DNA from: Methanothermococcus thermolithotrophicus DSM 2095
Lineage (GTDB): Archaea; AGJL01; Methanococci; Methanococcales; Methanococcaceae
Length of the DNA stretch: 24,000 nucleotides
Assembly (NCBI RefSeq): GCF_946463545.1
Contig: NZ_OX296583.1
Coordinates: 757,035-781,034, forward strand
Reading direction: 5' to 3'
Within the stretch, counting starts at the first letter, position 1; each line of letters begins with the position of its first letter. This document shows, one piece after another, positions 16,372 through 24,000 of the stretch. The position numbers and the translations under genes were made by a program. The notes under the pieces were generated by a model that ran no database searches, was not told where the DNA came from, and worked only from the letters and a program-made list of their open reading frames with translations.

Positions 16372-16617
16372 TAAGGACTCTCATTATACAACGTACTCAT
16401 AGTTTCAACAAAATAACAGCCCACTACAAAATTAGCTAAGGAATAACTCTAGAATCCACCAACAACAACTTTTTTAATTAATTTTTATTTTCATTAAAAT
16501 TTAAACATTTAACAACATTCCCGCTCCTGCCCATATCACATATAAAATACATCATATAGATAATGTAACAGACATAATTATAATACCAACAACATATAAT
16601 AATAGTTCGTGATACCA

Positions 16618-18636
16618 ATGAACGAAGGTAAAATTGAGGAACTAAAACACTTAATAACCAACTATTTAAGAAATTTTCATAGTGACGACATTATTTCAGA
16701 AAATGAGAAGGTAGTTGTAGATTTAAAGAATATTTACGACTATGGGATTATAGAATTTGTAGAATTAATACATGAAAGACCAAAATTAGGATTGGAAATA
16801 TTAAAAGAATGTTACGACAATGCATACTATACCCTAAAAAACGAAACACCAAACTGTGAAATTTCCATAAAAAACTTGCCTACAATATTCAACAAATCAG
16901 GGAAAAACAAGACAATTACTATAGAAAATATAAAAAGCAATACTTTAGGAAAACTAGTTGAATTTGAAGGCGTAGTGGTTACAGCAACAAAAATAAAATC
17001 TGCATTAAAAAAAGGAGTCTATATATGCGGTTCTTGTGGGGAAAAAACAGTTATTGAAGTTGAAAATCCATTTGAGGCTTCATTTGATCCATCCTGTAAA
17101 AAATGTGGCGGTGGAAATTTAGTACTAATTGAAGAGGAATCGGAGTTCATAGACTTTCAAGAAATAAAAGTCCAACAGCCATTAGATTTGATGGACGATC
17201 CCGAAGAACCTCCAAAGTACATAACTGTTTTTCTAACAAACTCTCCAGGAATATTCTGTGGACGTGTAAAAATAATGGGGATACCTATTAAAAACCAGAA
17301 AAATAGAAAAGTACCAATTTATGACATATATATCAAAGGACTGTATTGTGAAGTCATAGAAAACAAAATAGAAACCAGATTAAGTGAAGAAGACATTGAA
17401 AACATAGAAAAAGTAGCTAAAAATCCAAAAATTATAGATATACTGTCAGATCGACTCATTCCTGAAATAAAAGGATATAATATGGTTAAAAAGGCTATAT
17501 TCTTACAACAAATAAAAGGTGTTGAAAAAGGGAATAAAAGAGCAGACAGTCACATACTTCTAATTACCGACCCGGGAATTGGAAAGACTGTCATGTTAAG
17601 AAGGATTGCAGAATTACCCGGAAATCTCTATGGTTCTGTGACGACAGCTTCAGGCGTTGGATTAACTGCAGCAGTTATAAGAGAAAAAACAGAAATTGGA
17701 GATGACACCTGGGTCATAAAGCCAGGTTTACTTGTAAAGGCAAATAAAGGTACTGCATGTATTGACGAGCTCACTGTGAATAGAGACCTTCAAAGTTTTG
17801 TATTGGAGGCAATGGAAAGTCAAACAATACACATAAGTAAAGGAGGAATAAACGCCAAATTACCATCCAAATGTGCAATACTTGCGGCATGCAACCCACG
17901 ATGGGGAAGATTTGACCCCAATGTATCCGTTGCAGAGCAAATAAATATCCCTGCGCCTATGTTGAGTAGATTTGACTTAATATTTCCAATTAGGGATGAA
18001 GCTGATAGATCAAAAGATAAAGATATTGCAGAGCACATAATAAACGTCCATAGAGCTCTATTAAACAATGAAATTGATCAGATAGGTTTAGAATACATTG
18101 AACTAGACGGCGTTAAAATTGATAAAGATTTTATAATAAAATATATATCCTACGCAAGACAGAAAGAACCTATAATATCAAAAGATGCTGAAAAGGTTTT
18201 AATAGACTACTACTTGAGTATGAGGAAAGGTGCTGTTCAAATAACTGCAAGACAGTTAGAAGCAGCAATAAGGCTCGCCGAAGCTCATGCAAAGGCCAAA
18301 TTAAAGGACGTTGTTGATGAAGAAGATGCCAGAGAAGCTATAACTATAATCACAGAATCATTAAAAGAAATTGCCTATGACCCTGAAACTGGGCAATTTG
18401 ACATTGATAAAATAGCAGGTATCTCCAAAAAAGACAGAAATAAAATGACTCATATTTATGATATTATTAAAAAACTTGCAGAAAAGAATGAAGATGGTCT
18501 AGTAATATATGAAGATATTGTTGAAGAGGCCAAATCAGAAAACATAGATGAAGAAGAAGTGGAAAATATACTTAAAAAAATGGTCAAATATGGAGATATT
18601 GACGAGCCTAAAACTGGAAAATATAGGCTCATTTAA
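16618..18636 (+). CDS. mcm: MCM replicative helicase paralog (divergent)
   Basis: The zinc finger is CGSCGEK...CKKCGG. The AAA+ core includes ITDPGIGKTVML, ACIDELTVN, IHISKGGINAKLPSKCAILAACNP, SRFDLIF and ITARQLEAAIRLAEAHAKA. The tracked ORF starts at a GTG (16609), and the first ATG is at 16618. Confidence 0.9.
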   Translation: MNEGKIEELKHLITNYLRNFHSDDIISENEKVVVDLKNIYDYGIIEFVELIHERPKLGLEILKECYDNAYYTLKNETPNCEISIKNLPTIFNKSGKNKTITIENIKSNTLGKLVEFEGVVVTATKIKSALKKGVYICGSCGEKTVIEVENPFEASFDPSCKKCGGGNLVLIEEESEFIDFQEIKVQQPLDLMDDPEEPPKYITVFLTNSPGIFCGRVKIMGIPIKNQKNRKVPIYDIYIKGLYCEVIENKIETRLSEEDIENIEKVAKNPKIIDILSDRLIPEIKGYNMVKKAIFLQQIKGVEKGNKRADSHILLITDPGIGKTVMLRRIAELPGNLYGSVTTASGVGLTAAVIREKTEIGDDTWVIKPGLLVKANKGTACIDELTVNRDLQSFVLEAMESQTIHISKGGINAKLPSKCAILAACNPRWGRFDPNVSVAEQINIPAPMLSRFDLIFPIRDEADRSKDKDIAEHIINVHRALLNNEIDQIGLEYIELDGVKIDKDFIIKYISYARQKEPIISKDAEKVLIDYYLSMRKGAVQITARQLEAAIRLAEAHAKAKLKDVVDEEDAREAITIITESLKEIAYDPETGQFDIDKIAGISKKDRNKMTHIYDIIKKLAEKNEDGLVIYEDIVEEAKSENIDEEEVENILKKMVKYGDIDEPKTGKYRLI

Positions 18637-18736: not shown

Positions 18737-19843
18737 ATGAACATGATATACAATGTGGCAGAAGATTTTTTAACTGGAGATATATGGATACTACCTACGG
18801 ACAGGGATAACCTACTAGAACTAAATGAAAATGGATGTATTAAACTAGTCAGGAATATACCTGTTTTAAGGATTTTAGCCACACCATCTATAAAAAAAAC
18901 AGTTAGTAGGTTAGCATATACAATAAAGGATAAAATGACAATGTTTAAAGGAGAAACATCAGGATGGATGAAAAATTTAATTAACTACCTCCATAAAACA
19001 TACTTCGACAAAAAGAGCAACAATTACTATAAGGCAAAAAAGGCATGGTATAGATTTATAGGAGATTTATTTAAAAATATTAGAGATTGGGAGTTTAACA
19101 AAGTAAGAGGTAAAATAATCGCACTTTTGAGAATTTTAAACCCAGTACTTGTATTCGATATCCACAATACAACAAAGTGGAATTATACTACAAGTTTTGT
19201 TAAATTCATCAAAGAATTGAAAAAAAACAATATAACCGTCGTACTAAGGTGTCCGTTCGAATCTATGGACCATGTTAAAGAACTGTTTAAAGAATCCAGA
19301 ATAAACAATATTGCAACAATTAAATACTACGGAAAAACACTCGGTCATACCATATCAGCAAAAGTTGCAAAATATTTAATCGAAATTTCGAATGGTAATT
19401 TGGATGTTATTAGATTGATACTGAAACATTCAAAAAGGGAGCTGAAATCATTGCGGGAGTTAAGGATACATTGGTTAAAAATAATACCTGAGATTGTTCC
19501 TAAAAAATATAGAAAAATTATGAAATTAGCCTGTAAACTGAAAAAATTCAATATAAAAAATATAGGCAATTATTTAAACTTCAGTTTATCCACAACCTAC
19601 AACTATATGAATGAATTGGTTGAACTGGGCCTGTTAACTAAGAGGAAAGTTAGAAAAAACGTACTATTTAAAATAAGAATTGATAAGGATTCCTTGTTGA
19701 ACGTAATAGGGAAATATAACCCCAACAACTTGCATGAGATTTTTTTAATAAATAGCAAATGTAGTAAATATGTCCAAAAAAATACGTTTTTAAAGAAAAA
19801 AGGGTTTTCTACTTTTCGAACTAAGTGTGATTATATAGAATAA
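18737..19843 (+). CDS. Hypothetical protein: apparent degenerate AAA+ (Orc1/Cdc6- or archaeal-ATPase-like) core plus C-terminal winged helix
   Basis: 368 aa. A P-loop-like but non-canonical ATPSIKKT sits at residues ~47-54, and a Walker-B-like PVLVFDIHN at ~136-144. ISNGNLDVIRLILKHS resembles a sensor-2/lid helix. The C-terminal wH reads NIKNIGNYLNFSLSTTYNYMNELVELGLLTKRKVRKNVLFKI. Confidence 0.55.
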   Translation: MNMIYNVAEDFLTGDIWILPTDRDNLLELNENGCIKLVRNIPVLRILATPSIKKTVSRLAYTIKDKMTMFKGETSGWMKNLINYLHKTYFDKKSNNYYKAKKAWYRFIGDLFKNIRDWEFNKVRGKIIALLRILNPVLVFDIHNTTKWNYTTSFVKFIKELKKNNITVVLRCPFESMDHVKELFKESRINNIATIKYYGKTLGHTISAKVAKYLIEISNGNLDVIRLILKHSKRELKSLRELRIHWLKIIPEIVPKKYRKIMKLACKLKKFNIKNIGNYLNFSLSTTYNYMNELVELGLLTKRKVRKNVLFKIRIDKDSLLNVIGKYNPNNLHEIFLINSKCSKYVQKNTFLKKKGFSTFRTKCDYIE

Positions 19844-19969
19844 TACAAAATATACAATACATAATATCAAATATGTTGAGTGTAATGTTGTGACACAGCC
19901 TTATTTTTCGAATACTACTTATGATTCATATTATAAGAAAATTATTTTGCTATTTTTTAACTTATACGA

Positions 19970-20019
19970 TTTCGAGTTTTCGAGTGTAGTGTATGTATAG
20001 AATTTTGGAAGGTATCCCC
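19970..20019 (+). repeat. Left arm of an imperfect ~50-bp inverted repeat (starts with the box TTTCGAGTTTTCGA)
   Basis: It aligns without gaps to the reverse complement of 20291-20341 at about 39 of 50 positions (hand count). Shared blocks are TTTCGRGTTTTCGA, TGTATGTATA, TTTTG.AA and GTATCC. Confidence 0.8.
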
Positions 20020-20290
20020 ATTTAGGTTTTACAAAAATTATTCCAAACGTATTCTATATGTTATTACTATTTTGATCTATAAATGTATAATATGTATAAA
20101 TAATAAACAATATGTTATAATATACACTATAGTGTGATTATACTACTAAAAACGATGTAAACAATCAATACTAATCTAGAGAAACATGTTTAATTATCAT
20201 TAAACATATTTAACAAGATGATAACTACTATGTGGTAAATACTGGATAAATTACTCTCTGTTATAATCAAAAATGCATTTTTTATTTATT

Positions 20291-20341
20291 GGTGGATACA
20301 TTTCAAAACCATATACATACATCACGTTCGAAAACCCGAAA
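20291..20341 (-). repeat. Right arm of the inverted repeat (reverse complement starts TTTCGGGTTTTCGA)
   Basis: See the left arm. The arm ends 6 nt from the stop codon of the wHTH gene at 20347. Confidence 0.8.
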
Positions 20342-20346
20342 TACTA

Positions 20347-20865
20347 TTATTTTGTAGATTGGTAATACTTTTTCAGATAGTTTATGTGCTTACATTCTTG
20401 AGATTGGCAGGATATACACCACCAAGTATCGTTTTTAGTTTTAAATACTCTCGAAACTTCTTCTCCCCTGTAGTCGTAGAATTTAAAAGTAATTCCTCCA
20501 AAATTATCGGCGAATTTTCTTATTTCAAATCCCATATTCTTTACTGGATAATACTTTGTTTCAAATTTCTTTTTCGGAAGACTTTCGAAAACACTCGAAA
20601 AACTAACGTCGAATATTTCGGGACATATTCTCTTTAATATTGATATTCCTTTCACCGTTAAGGAATATAAGACTTTATGTCTGTTTCTTTCTCTTTTAGC
20701 CACATTTAAAGCTACGCACATCCTTAAAAACTGTGAAGGTAGCCCTTTTGAAATTCGAAGGTTTTCGGATATCTGCTGGGGATAAGTTGTGCCATTAGTT
20801 AACACATAGTGTAAAATTAGTTTTCTAAATGGTGTTGAGATTATTCCTTTTACTAAGTTATCCAT
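20347..20865 (-). CDS. Small winged-HTH protein with a C-terminal Cys/His zinc knuckle (SWIM-like)
   Basis: The N-terminal wHTH reads FRKLILHYVLTNGTTYPQQISENLRISKGLPSQFLRMCVALNVAKRERNRHKVLYSLTVKG. The C-terminus WWCISCQSQECKHINYL has the spacing C-x2-C-x4-C-x-H. The tracked start (20868) is a TTG, while the ATG at 20865 has a GGTGA SD. Confidence 0.6.
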   Translation of the reverse strand: MDNLVKGIISTPFRKLILHYVLTNGTTYPQQISENLRISKGLPSQFLRMCVALNVAKRERNRHKVLYSLTVKGISILKRICPEIFDVSFSSVFESLPKKKFETKYYPVKNMGFEIRKFADNFGGITFKFYDYRGEEVSRVFKTKNDTWWCISCQSQECKHINYLKKYYQSTK

Positions 20866-21169
20866 CAAATCACCTTTTTTTAGTTATTGGGTGCTCTTTG
20901 ACTAAGATCTAATGAATATCTAATTTTTTAAACGAATATTTATCTTTAGGGTTTTTGATTCATATAACGTTTTTCGTCCAATACTAATTTACTAATAATT
21001 TTGATAGTATATATGTCTTTTTATTTGATAGTTTTTTGTTTAAAGCCAATAATTTGGATATGTTGAAAAATGTAGGGGGTATATCCGTTGTTTTAATTTT
21101 CTTATATGATACTTGATTAACTTTCAATTTTTAATATTTTATTCAAAGTTATTTTACGTTTTATGGTTA

Positions 21170-21181
21170 TATTCACAATAT
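21170..21181 (+). repeat. Partial third copy (TATTCACAATAT) of the 16-nt direct repeat
   Basis: This is a 12-nt exact match to the core of the repeats at 21322 and 21352. Confidence 0.5.
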
Positions 21182-21321
21182 ATTTTTTAGTATATAAGTA
21201 AAAAATACAATTAAAGAAAAATTTATTAAATAAGAATAATTATATATACTTTTTCTTTTTTATTAAAATAAATTTTAATTGAATTTTGAGAGTCATTTGG
21301 CTTTGTATTGTTTATATAATT

Positions 21322-21367
21322 TTTTATTCACAATATTTTTGCTATTTTATGTTTTATTCACAATATT
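21322..21367 (+). repeat. Two perfect 16-nt direct repeats, TTTTATTCACAATATT, with 30-bp phasing
   Basis: The copies lie at 21322-21337 and 21352-21367, within the 680-bp non-coding spacer upstream of the Orc1/Cdc6-like gene. Confidence 0.8.
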
Positions 21368-21430
21368 ATTGCATAGTAAATAATTTATATAGTTATATCT
21401 ATAAATATTTTTAGATGTTAAATTTTAGAT

Positions 21431-21458
21431 TTTCGAATTTTCGAAAAGTATAAAAAAG
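21431..21458 (+). promoter_or_regulatory. Box TTTCGAATTTTCGA followed by the TATA-like GTATAAAAAAG: probable promoter of the Orc1/Cdc6-like gene
   Basis: The 14-mer and its close spacing to a TATA (about 3-4 nt) match the inferred RNase P RNA promoter. It lies ~90-115 nt upstream of the ATG at 21547. Confidence 0.5.
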
Positions 21459-21489
21459 TTGATAATGCAATTATCTAATTATTATTTTA

Positions 21490-21510
21490 AAATTTTCAAA
21501 TTGAAAATTT
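21490..21510. promoter_or_regulatory. Perfect 21-bp palindrome AAATTTTCAA-A-TTGAAAATTT
   Basis: The arms are 10 bp each and the centre is at 21500. It sits between the putative TATA and the RBS (GGTGG at 21538-21542) of the Orc1/Cdc6-like gene. Confidence 0.55.
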
Positions 21511-21546
21511 GCACTAGGACGCTTCTTTTTAATTTATGGTGGTATT

Positions 21547-22773
21547 ATGTTGGACCCTATTGAATTTATATACAATTCATCATCTATAACAAGAAAAGCG
21601 ATGAATAGATTGAAACTAAAAACAAATCCTTTTTCGGAAAAACCTATTAGGGGAAATACTAAGTTTTTCGTAGGTAGAACTTCAGAGCTGAAAGAAATTG
21701 CCGACATATTGGGTGCAGCTCAGTATGGAAGTATAGCTAACGCTGCCATTGTAGGTACAAAAGGTATTGGTAAGAGCTCTATACTCAACATATTGTACTA
21801 TGCTGCAAAAAGAAAGGGTTATTGGGTAGTGGAGCTCGAGGCCTCGCAAGTTACTCCCAGGCAATTTTTAATCCAGTTAATGTATGGTATTATTAAGGAT
21901 AATTTATTTTCAATAGATGGTACTTTATCAACGGATTATATGGAACATTCCCAAAGAATTATTGAAATATATAGGCGACTGAACAACTATAGCGATAAAA
22001 CACCGGTTCACTATCCAAGGGAAAAAATAGAAAGGGATTTGGATTATCTATTGACAAATGTGAGGGAAGAAGGAAAGTTATGTATAATAACAATAGATGA
22101 GGCAGACCAATTTGCTAAAAAAAGCTGTCTAAGCCTTTTACAGTTCTTTCATTCATTCCTCTATGAAGATGGAATTTTAGTATTTTTTGCAGGTTCTCCT
22201 ACATTAATGGAGGGTTTAACAAAAGTATCTCCTGCAATGAAGGATAGAATACCTAAGGTAATAAACATGCCTCCACTCCTAAAAGAAGAAGCTTATGATT
22301 TAATTAAAAGACGATTGGAAGATGCTCACACAGTTAAAGCAGGAGATTATGAGCCATTTACCGATGCTGCAATTGATAAAATAGTTGAAGAGTGCGATGG
22401 AATCCCAAGAAAGATAATAATGACTTGTTCTGAGGCAATATCTATAGCTATGAAAAAAGGAATGGATAAAATAGATGAAGACATAGTTAGAATGGCAATG
22501 AAAAAACTAGGTATTAGTGTAGGTCATCAAATATTAAATCATTTAACACCTGCCCAATCTAAAATAGTTCAAGCACTTGCGGATTTGGGCGGCAGTTCAA
22601 CAGTAACTGAGTTAGCTAGAATTTTAAACAACTCTCCTGGAACTATTGGAACTCATTTATCGGATATTTATGAAATGGGGTATGTATATAAAGAAAGAGT
22701 GGGTAATAATGTATATTACTCATTATCAAAGGAACTAACAGAGGTTCTAATCAATGAAGATGAAGAAAATTAA
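21547..22773 (+). CDS. Divergent Orc1/Cdc6-like AAA+ ATPase with C-terminal winged helix
   Basis: The N-terminal motif is PFSEKPI....FVGRTSELKEIADIL. Walker A is GTKGIGKSS, Walker B is CIITIDEADQF, and the sensor-2-like motif is CDGIPRKII. The C-terminal wH reads SKIVQALADLGGSSTVTELARILNNSPGTIGTHLSDIYEMGYVYKERVGNNVYYSL. A GGTGG SD is present. Confidence 0.75.
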   Translation: MLDPIEFIYNSSSITRKAMNRLKLKTNPFSEKPIRGNTKFFVGRTSELKEIADILGAAQYGSIANAAIVGTKGIGKSSILNILYYAAKRKGYWVVELEASQVTPRQFLIQLMYGIIKDNLFSIDGTLSTDYMEHSQRIIEIYRRLNNYSDKTPVHYPREKIERDLDYLLTNVREEGKLCIITIDEADQFAKKSCLSLLQFFHSFLYEDGILVFFAGSPTLMEGLTKVSPAMKDRIPKVINMPPLLKEEAYDLIKRRLEDAHTVKAGDYEPFTDAAIDKIVEECDGIPRKIIMTCSEAISIAMKKGMDKIDEDIVRMAMKKLGISVGHQILNHLTPAQSKIVQALADLGGSSTVTELARILNNSPGTIGTHLSDIYEMGYVYKERVGNNVYYSLSKELTEVLINEDEEN

Positions 22774-22854: not shown

Positions 22855-23799
22855 ATGTTGTTTTGTGATGTTCAAGCTACTGAACCTGATATTAAAGTCT
22901 CACTTACAAGGGTCGGTGTAACCAACCTAAAAAAACTTGTAAAAATAAAAAGAAAAGCAAAAAGGCCCATAGTACTTTTGCCCACTTTTGAAGTCTTTGT
23001 TGATTTGCCAAGTTCCCAAAAGGGAATACATATGTCCAGGAGCCCCGAGGTAATAGAGGAAATTATTGAAAATATAATTATCGAAAAAGATGTGTATGGT
23101 CTTGAAGAACTTTCCGTAGATATTGTAACAAAATTGTTTGAAAAACATGAGTATGCAAACAGGGCAGAAGTTCTCATATATGGGGACTATATGATGGAAG
23201 AAAAATCTCCAGTAACGGAAAAAAAATCCCAAGAAATATGTAAAATAATTGCCAGAGCATATGGTATAAAAAAAGATGGCAAAATAAACATTAAAAAAAT
23301 GGTTGGGGCAGAAGTTGTAGGAATGACTGCATGCCCTTGTGCCCAAAATCTTTTAAAGGAAAAGGCTGTGAAAAATCTGAAAGATCAAGGATTTTCAGAT
23401 GAAGATATTAAAAAAATAATGAGCTCGGTAGTCATAGCAACCCACAATCAAAGAGGGATAGGTACTGTAATGATCGAAGTACCTCATGGTTACGATGTTG
23501 GAATTTCAAATATAATTGAAATAATAAAGAAGTCAATGAGTGGAGAAGTATATGAACTTCTAAAGAGAAGTGATGAAGCTTATGTTGTAGAAACTGCCCA
23601 TAATAATCCTAAATTTGTTGAAGATTGTGCCAGAGAAATGATTAAAAGAGTCGTAGATGAATTTAGCTATCTTCCGGATGATACTCAAGTTTTAGTAAGG
23701 CAAGTAAATAAGGAAAGTATTCATAGGCATGATGCATTTGCAGAAAGGTTTTCGACAATGGGTGAGCTAAGGGAAGAATTATCTAAAACACACAAATAG
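22855..23799 (+). CDS. mptA: GTP cyclohydrolase MptA (FolE2/MptA family, type IV)
   Basis: Family motifs are present: DVQ...P.....LTRVGV, LPSSQKGIHMSRS, MTACPCAQ, ATHNQRGIG and FVEDCAREM. An AAGGTGG SD is present. Confidence 0.85.
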   Translation: MLFCDVQATEPDIKVSLTRVGVTNLKKLVKIKRKAKRPIVLLPTFEVFVDLPSSQKGIHMSRSPEVIEEIIENIIIEKDVYGLEELSVDIVTKLFEKHEYANRAEVLIYGDYMMEEKSPVTEKKSQEICKIIARAYGIKKDGKINIKKMVGAEVVGMTACPCAQNLLKEKAVKNLKDQGFSDEDIKKIMSSVVIATHNQRGIGTVMIEVPHGYDVGISNIIEIIKKSMSGEVYELLKRSDEAYVVETAHNNPKFVEDCAREMIKRVVDEFSYLPDDTQVLVRQVNKESIHRHDAFAERFSTMGELREELSKTHK

Positions 23800-23805
23800 T
23801 TAAAC

Positions 23806-24000
23806 TCGACGAAAATCAAAGATTTTTGTGAATCGACATCGAAGCAAATCTTCGATTTGCTGTCGAAGCGAATCCAAAGGATTCGCTGACTTACGAAAAC
23901 CTGAAAGGTTTTCGTTAAGACTCACAAAATCTGAAGGATTTTGTCTAGAATTCCAAGGAAATTTGTCTCGATCAGCAAATCACCAACTTCGTTGGTGAGC
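23806..24000. other. Array of six perfect, sequence-distinct short hairpins/dyads plus one imperfect dyad, truncated by the window edge
   Basis: The hairpins are 23809-23829 (ACGAAAATC/AAA/GATTTTTGT, one G-T pair), 23843-23861 (AGCAAATC/TTC/GATTTGCT), 23867-23887 (AGCGAATCC/AAA/GGATTCGCT) and 23893-23915 (ACGAAAACC/TGAAA/GGTTTTCGT). They continue with 23924-23944 (ACAAAATC/TGAAG/GATTTTGT) and 23980-23998 (TCACCAAC/TTC/GTTGGTGA). A weak dyad lies around 23949-23964. Confidence 0.8.

Follow-up and report, generated by a model that had tools for sequence, protein, structure and literature searches.

The stretch of DNA analysed here, referred to as the window, comprises 24,000 nucleotides of the Methanothermococcus thermolithotrophicus DSM 2095 genome (contig NZ_OX296583.1, positions 757,035 to 781,034) and contains, near its right end, a gene for a protein which is fairly likely to initiate replication at the AT-rich spacers next to the gene, as an ATP-dependent, box-binding protein of the Orc1/Cdc6-like type. 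An earlier note on this DNA had proposed such an Orc1/Cdc6-like initiator candidate; the predicted fold, the sequence motifs and the lack of a canonical competitor support this proposal, and from these and the further evidence below we infer the initiator role. How replication starts in Methanococcales and Methanopyrus without a recognisable Orc1/Cdc6 has been a question since the first archaeal genome, and the MJ0774 family is the standing candidate. Methanococcales have been reported to lack Orc1/Cdc6 or to possess highly divergent orc genes, with distant candidates only (PMC3914693, PMC3984812, PMC5333045), in agreement with the earlier note.

By full-length sequence comparison, the gene is the Methanococcales orthologue of Methanocaldococcus jannaschii MJ0774, or Mc-pRIP (for Methanococcales putative replication initiation protein, the name used in DoriC and Ori-Finder). 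The initiator proposal for this family is thus already known: MJ0774 was put forward in 2004 by Zhang and Zhang as a distant Cdc6 homologue (PMC3531139, PMC4009838), was proposed again in 2012, was renamed Mc-pRIP in DoriC 5.0 (PMC3531139) and has been used for predicting Methanococcales origins. A Cdc6-like predicted structure is published as well, in the Ori-Finder-Arch preprint of August 2026 (10.64898/2026.08.15.744077), in which AlphaFold 3 models of Mc-pRIP resemble Cdc6 and an 'Mc-pRIP lid' is defined. The finding itself adds one more Mc-pRIP orthologue. The relocation of the gene, its joint loss with two neighbours and the identity of its nearest relatives, all described below, are new comparative points and are offered as leads.

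Conserved motifs and predicted structure

The open reading frame (ORF) is no chance frame but a true gene, because 31 of the 40 Methanococcales genomes in which presence and absence were scored encode a full-length orthologue (71-83% identity, one per genome) and because the catalytic residues are invariant. A Shine-Dalgarno-like GGTGG precedes the ATG by 5 nt, and the predicted start, MLDPIEF, agrees with that of the orthologues. Identity to MJ0774 is 72.9% over 406 aa; an exact look-up of the M. jannaschii orthologue returns Q58184, 'Uncharacterized HTH-type transcriptional regulator MJ0774'. The gene is better conserved than its neighbour mptA (73% versus 67% identity to M. jannaschii), and the order of an MJ0773-like gene, a spacer, the candidate gene and mptA is conserved with that species. 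In addition to full-length orthology, the domain make-up described for Mc-pRIP in the Ori-Finder-Arch preprint is present (matches to AAA_16, AAA_22, AAA and HTH_5, and a modelled lid), and beside the gene lies an extended AT-rich, repeat-containing intergenic region, the predicted oriC. Family, domains and neighbours (MJ0773-like gene, AT-rich spacer, mptA) are the same as for MJ0774/Mc-pRIP; nothing essential differs. The motifs named in the earlier note (the N-terminal motif, Walker A, Walker B, DGIPRK and the winged helix) were each found at the expected place:

21547-22773, plus strand: Mc-pRIP/MJ0774 orthologue, 408 aa, with N-terminal extension, AAA+ core, lid and ArsR-like winged helix
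21625-21690, plus strand: N-terminal signature NPF...FFVGR..EL, NPFSEKPIRGNTKFFVGRTSEL, aa 27-48
21754-21780, plus strand: Walker A GTKGIGKSS, aa 70-78, invariant among orthologues
22087-22110, plus strand: Walker B ITIDEADQ, aa 181-188, with D184 and E185 invariant
22240-22257, plus strand: KDRIPK, aa 232-237, with invariant R234 at the box VII/arginine-finger position
22396-22413, plus strand: DGIPRK, aa 284-289, at the start of a lid helix, with R288 invariant in the wider family
22549-22725, plus strand: winged helix-turn-helix, aa 335-393, as delimited in the model; Pfam HTH_5 at aa 335-382 with E 9e-11

Among 16 orthologue cluster representatives, K76, D184, E185, R234 and R288 are invariant, and K76, D184 and R288 remain so among the distant relatives that make up the wider family. 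P28, F29 and R44 of the N-terminal signature are kept even among relatives with 22-28% identity. Judged by its position and by likeness to Orc1/Cdc6, R234 would be an arginine-finger-like residue, and R288, again by position, a sensor-2-like residue. All nucleotide-handling residues of the protein thus appear to be intact. The recognition helix and the wing are almost invariant across the order, with invariant columns T366-I374.

Structure prediction with AlphaFold2 and a 39-sequence alignment gave a model with a pLDDT of 84.7 and a pTM of 0.75 (a single-sequence run with a pLDDT of 41.5 was discarded). In this model the candidate is a single-chain protein with Orc1/Cdc6 architecture, in which an AAA+ base is followed by a four-helix lid (aa 246-332) and a winged helix made of three helices and a beta-hairpin. 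The earlier note had suggested structure prediction and a Foldseek search as a check of the fold. In this search against the Protein Data Bank (PDB), the matches at ranks 1-16 were all archaeal Orc1/Cdc6 or eukaryotic ORC1, ORC4 and Cdc6 chains, led by the DNA-bound Orc1-1 of Sulfolobus solfataricus (2qby_A; E 4e-13, TM 0.64/0.70, 406 columns), with A. pernix ORC1 (2v1u_A) as the other leading match. RuvB followed at lower ranks, and STAND proteins (Apaf-1, NLR) appeared at ranks 47-50. A fold search of BFVD returned generic AAA+ and RFC matches only. When the family profile was compared with PDB sequences, 2qby_A was also the best multi-domain match (E 2e-15).

The best full-length structural matches, the archaeal Orc1/Cdc6 proteins S. 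solfataricus Orc1-1/Orc1-3 (2QBY), A. pernix ORC1 (2V1U) and A. pernix ORC2 (1W5S), share the three-domain layout, and their Walker A and B motifs and arginine-finger-like and sensor-2-like residues are found at equivalent places in the candidate; as in the candidate, the gene adjoins an AT-rich, repeat-bearing spacer. In contrast to these proteins, to which identity is 16-19%, the candidate has an ArsR-type winged helix and a family-specific N-terminal NPF motif, and in it strands 2 and 3 are separated by about 80 residues that include three helices, at the place where Orc1 has the initiator-specific motif. In the model these helices (aa 104-172) lie between strand 2 and the Walker B strand, in a region that is highly variable in the wider family.

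Placement by sequence and distant relatives

At the sequence level the protein is very far from canonical Orc1/Cdc6, as the earlier note had stated. The model TIGR02928 matches aa 132-347 with 37.9 bits (E 9e-10) versus a cut-off of 181.3 bits, the PRK00411 models reach 17 bits, and sub-threshold TIGR02928 matches occur in 13 of 22 members of the family. Neither the Cdc6 lid (PF22703) nor the Cdc6 winged helix (PF09079) is among the best 25 of the 29 Pfam families that match with E up to 1; any match to them is therefore weaker than E 0.097. The N-terminal half matches AAA_16, ATPase_2 and AAA_22 just over the Pfam thresholds. The earlier note had seen the Arch_ATPase/DUF234 type as a placement that would speak against an initiator, and the first half of this description does apply: ATPase_2 (the former Arch_ATPase, PF01637) scores 35.4 bits against a threshold of 33.2. 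However, DUF234 is absent, the C-terminus being HTH_5 according to Pfam, and the fold search favours another clade. STAND models remained under threshold (nSTAND3 22.3 vs 27.2, nSTAND1 16.1 vs 27.1, NB-ARC 15.6 vs 23.5 bits). By sequence, the winged helix most resembles ArsR/SmtB and Csa3-type regulators, and the database name for the family is ArsR-family regulator. Weak profile matches were found to BrxC/D, Sll1717 and 'anti-phage' families. PADLOC gave no defence-system match for the ATPase part and matched the winged helix alone to Csa3/CasR; a match to SngB (21.8 bits) covers the P-loop only.

Within its own genome, the candidate gene is the best TIGR02928 match; nothing reaches the cut-off of this model and no canonical Orc1/Cdc6 was found. 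A search for canonical Orc1/Cdc6 gave no match at E 1e-30 in any of the 40 Methanococcales genomes, and the Haloferax, Sulfolobus and Methanosarcina genomes used as positive controls all matched.

Relatives outside the order were sought with a profile of Methanococcales proteins against 1.84 billion cluster representatives. The nearest ones belong to an uncharacterised family of about 380-430 aa which combines AAA_16/ATPase_2 with an ArsR-type winged helix (e.g. P0018, P0019, P0028, P0168) and which aligns with the candidate family over the full length (E 2e-39 to 1e-20, 22-28% identity). All 10 full-length relatives that were checked are below the Orc1/Cdc6 cut-off. The NPF...FVGR..EL signature, Walker A and B, GNPR and the winged-helix layout are common to this family and the candidate. 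Its members are scattered in other archaea and in metagenomes, whereas the Methanococcales proteins form one tight chromosomal clade.

The surroundings of two distant relatives (both 22-25% identity) were inspected. One, in a metagenome-assembled genome of Thermoplasmatota (L067:8001-11076), has a ribbon-helix-helix (RHH) protein, an AAA_14 NTPase, a short MCM_OB-only protein and small ORFs nearby; the other (L069:735-7234) is found near small ORFs and a TraG/VirD4-like coupling protein. The contexts of these two cases suggest mobile elements. A tblastn search of 72,556 plasmids produced weak, remote matches only and did not reach haloarchaeal plasmid Orc1 genes, and a tblastn search of phage records yielded no match.

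The upstream spacer contains a conserved array of boxes

The AT-rich, repeat-bearing region that the earlier note had seen upstream of the gene is real, and it holds three copies of a short box:

20869-21546, no strand: spacer of 678 bp, GC 0.187, between the divergent MJ0773-like gene and the candidate gene; the half of the candidate oriC that holds the boxes
21171-21179, plus strand: Box 1, ATTCACAAT, 376 nt before the ATG; 26.0 bits, the best match in the genome to a position weight matrix (PWM) for the box
21326-21334, plus strand: Box 2, ATTCACAAT, 221 nt before the ATG and 155 nt after Box 1; 24.8 bits
21356-21364, plus strand: Box 3, ATTCACAAT, 191 nt before the ATG and 30 nt after Box 2; 20.6 bits
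21188-21317, no strand: core between Box 1 and Box 2, 130 bp, GC 0.131, with a 43-nt imperfect palindrome inside

Spacers were compared at 27 loci that contain them completely; at three more loci the spacer is rearranged or runs into a contig end. The lengths of the orthologous spacers are 494-782 bp and their GC content is 0.11-0.22, and in all five genus labels they contain boxes that share one orientation and lie about 30 and 155-157 bp apart. The box consensus is ATTCAYRAT, and its core is invariant across the order. With the PWM, which was trained on 63 sites, Boxes 1-3 are the three best matches in the whole genome. No inverted copy of at least 10 bits was found between positions 18,500 and 22,000 of the window, which includes both AT-rich spacers of this locus. 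In Methanocaldococcus the boxes are located about 375, 219 and 189 nt before the ATG, with a fourth at 590, and in Methanococcus they form pairs, one at 339/309 and one at 153/123 nt. The arrangement of two boxes at a distance of exactly 30 nt occurs 11 times in 9 genomes, always directly upstream of the orthologue, and the reversed control pattern was found 0 times. Boxes are weak or absent at this stringency in genus label g3 (0-1 exact boxes in five loci), and the exact 30-nt pair is missing from labels g3 and g4. These comparative results define the exact motif and geometry of the boxes.

The AT-richness of the 130-bp core is matched by only 0.15% of the 120-bp windows of the genome, and from its composition and position this segment is a candidate unwinding element.

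As a separate observation, the stretch at positions 19813-21445 is enriched in the octamer TTTTCGAA and its relatives, with 8 of 91 genome copies in the 24-kb window. Most of the in-window copies of TTTTCGAA are located in or beside the two spacers, and a tandem pair (21430-21445) is found in the leader of the candidate gene.

Composition polarity of the chromosome

The (A+C)-(G+T) disparity curve climbs from position 1 of the genome to a single peak at 776,905 (position 19,871 of the window), 1.7 kb upstream of the candidate gene, and then falls; its range is 14 standard deviations (SD) above that of block shuffles. The polarity of the chromosome thus switches on a plateau that includes the locus. 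The GC disparity is lowest at 771,905 and highest at 1,611,755, two positions that are 49% of the genome apart. Because of this distance from the minimum near the candidate locus, the position around 1,611,760 may be the terminus. The purine (RY) disparity has its extremes at 194,588 and 1,611,773, which differ from the amino/keto extremes; the GC and RY maxima coincide within 20 nt.

Neighbouring genes, relocation and loss

The genes around the candidate include the following:

16609-18636, plus strand: MCM helicase, the best-conserved MCM copy
18737-19843, plus strand: MJ0772-like gene, 368 aa, just after MCM; hhalign comparison with the Mc-pRIP family gives a probability of 75% and E 2.6e-5
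20347-20868, minus strand: MJ0773-like gene, 173 aa, with N-terminal winged helix and C-terminal Cys/His cluster; divergent from the candidate gene, 62% identical to MJ0773
22855-23799, plus strand: mptA, GTP cyclohydrolase MptA (TIGR00294, 431.8 bits), the downstream neighbour and an unrelated housekeeping gene

The MJ0773-like gene sits between two AT-rich spacers; in Methanococcus its product shows only 28-40% identity and is far less conserved than the candidate. The MJ0772-like gene, which corresponds to the M. jannaschii ORF at 692431-693444, is present in 30 of the 40 genomes with a pattern near-identical to that of MJ0774. Its product has a lid and a winged helix homologous to those of the Mc-pRIP family, with GNPR changed to GNLD and the sensor-2 arginine replaced, and on these sequence grounds is a probable inactive paralogue of the candidate. 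MCM is located 2.9-3.1 kb upstream of the candidate gene here and in four other Methanococcaceae genomes (G018, G021, G026, G039). In M. jannaschii this linkage is not kept, the MCM orthologue being about 766 kb away from the candidate orthologue.

In two genomes the gene has moved away from its usual neighbours. The orthologue is located 447 kb from the MJ0772-like/MJ0773-like pair in M. indicus SL43 and 192 kb from it in M. infernus; the gap upstream of the relocated gene is 24 nt in the former, and in the latter the gene overlaps with the preceding ORF. The AT-rich spacer remains in both cases at the old locus beside the MJ0773-like gene. In M. indicus (G003:861500-868500) it still has four boxes, spaced at 31 and 157 nt, among them the two best matches of that genome to a matrix trained without it; the spacer retained in M. 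infernus has one box of at least 12 bits (17.1 bits). As the spacer and the full set of boxes stay behind when the gene moves, as seen in M. indicus, the box array is an autonomous locus and not merely the operator of the gene. With gene and cis element far apart, these two species make it possible to distinguish the part that marks the origin. The composition of the M. indicus chromosome shows no replication-type skew: its amino/keto disparity range (2049) is within that of shuffles (2418 +/- 533), and the purine-type curves reach their bottom at about 933-937 kb, which is neither the position of the box array at about 864 kb nor that of the relocated gene at about 1,311 kb.

Eight Methanococcaceae genomes of one genus label (G025, G028-G032, G035, G036) lack the candidate, the MJ0772-like and the MJ0773-like genes together, and no canonical Orc1/Cdc6 was found in them either. 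One of these genomes is closed (Methanofervidicoccus sp. A16, 1,504,113 bp); here a gene for a 617-aa Lon_C protease-like protein precedes mptA (L059:5182-7980). We found no mention in the literature of the joint loss of the three genes in these eight genomes. A lineage without the whole module would have to use another initiator, or to replicate without a defined origin.

Proposed mechanism and alternative explanations

If the candidate is the initiator, the chromosomal origin would be located in the two AT-rich spacers just upstream of its gene. ATP-bound monomers might recognise the ATTCAYRAT boxes by means of the nearly invariant winged helix, and the spacing of about 30 and about 155 bp, equal to some 3 and some 15 helical turns, would let all of them sit on the same side of the double helix. 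From there they could deform the 13%-GC segment that separates Box 1 from Box 2 and load MCM, the helicase encoded 3 kb upstream; the MJ0773-like winged-helix/zinc protein and the inactive MJ0772-like paralogue are probable partners. Box binding, ATP dependence, MCM loading and origin activity are the parts of this scheme that we infer, with the unique, conserved box array and the linkage to MCM as indirect evidence for box binding and MCM recruitment.

A number of observations weigh against an initiator. The protein satisfies none of the curated Orc1/Cdc6 sequence definitions, and its nearest relatives by sequence are the non-canonical ATPase and winged-helix family and not canonical Orc1/Cdc6. 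The boxes all have the same orientation, unlike the inverted ORB/DUE/ORB arrangement of characterised archaeal origins; the published origin model of M. jannaschii is likewise drawn ORB(-)/DUE/ORB(+), whereas the boxes in the spacer studied here, direct repeats whose sequence is unlike ORB or mini-ORB, point in one direction. The top of the disparity curve is a plateau extending over about 774-788 kb and therefore does not pinpoint the spacer, and the GC disparity curve taken by itself runs irregularly in the first 550 kb. The absence of the gene from eight genomes, one of them closed, means that it is dispensable for some members of the order. We found no experimental work on any member of the MJ0774/Mc-pRIP family in the literature. 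Finally, Sulfolobus Orc1-2 demonstrates that an Orc1-fold protein with an ATPase and a winged helix can act as a pure transcription regulator (PMC6061795), binding promoters in the DNA-damage response (PMC6061795, PMC9738581); as Orc1-2 is not an initiator, the fold is no proof of initiator function.

This precedent is the starting point for an alternative which we regard as unlikely, namely that the candidate is an ATP-switched transcription factor which, through the boxes, regulates its own gene, the divergent MJ0773-like gene or a larger regulon. Such a role would agree with the database name of the family, with the resemblance of its winged helix to ArsR/SmtB and Csa3-type regulators and with the arrangement of the boxes as direct repeats inside a promoter-containing spacer, and the boxes that remain beside the MJ0773-like gene in M. 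indicus would fit regulation of that gene. However, Orc1-2 coexists with true initiator paralogues, whereas the genome studied here, like the rest of the order, has no other Orc-like protein, and the candidate gene is single-copy, nearly universal and exceptionally conserved. The boxes form a unique locus in the genome, which argues against a regulon, and instead of covering an obvious core promoter they are located about 190-375 nt before the ATG and flank the most AT-rich 130 bp. That the locus is on the polarity plateau and linked to MCM also speaks for replication. More improbable still, in our view, is a division of labour in which the candidate is a Cdc6-like helicase loader only and the origin is recognised by the MJ0773-like protein, the MJ0772-like protein or both. 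The three genes are co-present and co-absent over the 40 genomes and syntenic in most, and when the candidate gene was relocated, the spacer remained beside the other two, retaining the full boxes in M. indicus and a single weaker box in M. infernus. But the box core and the recognition helix of the candidate are both invariant across the order, in contrast to the low identity of the MJ0773-like protein in Methanococcus, and the candidate has a complete winged helix of its own, which aligns with the DNA-binding domain of DNA-bound Orc1 structures.

The order of an NTPase, a helical and a winged-helix domain is found in STAND NTPases as well, and PF01637 and AAA_16 are just over threshold on the N-terminal half of the candidate; in the fold search, however, Orc1/Cdc6 structures were better than STAND structures by about five orders of magnitude. 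It is very improbable that we are dealing with a mobile-element or defence-type NTPase that was domesticated and whose present role is unrelated to chromosome replication. The mobile-element-like contexts of two distant relatives and the weak similarity to BrxC/D, Sll1717 and 'anti-phage' profiles might be taken to point in this direction, but PADLOC matches are limited to the winged helix with none at the ATPase level, phage records gave no match and plasmids weak, remote ones only, and the gene is single-copy, highly conserved and fixed in its chromosomal position.

Taking an Orc1/Cdc6-like initiator as the preferred explanation, the comparative observations can be joined in a wider scenario, which is tentative and which we consider possible but doubtful as a whole. 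The MJ0772-like, MJ0773-like and MJ0774 genes might form a three-gene origin module acting on an autonomous cis element; cis element and initiator gene would be separable by hundreds of kilobases, as in M. indicus and M. infernus, and the whole module would have been lost in the Methanofervidicoccus lineage, which would then replicate without any Orc1/Cdc6-type protein. In this scenario, the family might have been recruited from a separate ATPase and winged-helix family that also resides on mobile elements, and would not be a fast-evolving, vertically inherited Orc1/Cdc6.

Other features of the window

On its minus strand the window carries an rRNA operon and the genes for the RNase P RNA and the PolD large subunit; the last of these lies in the same 18 kb as MCM and the candidate gene. 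The hairpin array which the earlier note had described beyond mptA is also real. Rfam gave no match for this array, which extends from positions 23800-24000 of the window onward (genome positions 780,834-781,104, about 270 nt) and consists of about 10 different short perfect hairpins with 8-10-bp stems and 3-5-nt loops, many of them with an AAATC...GATTT core; its folding z-score is -8.5.

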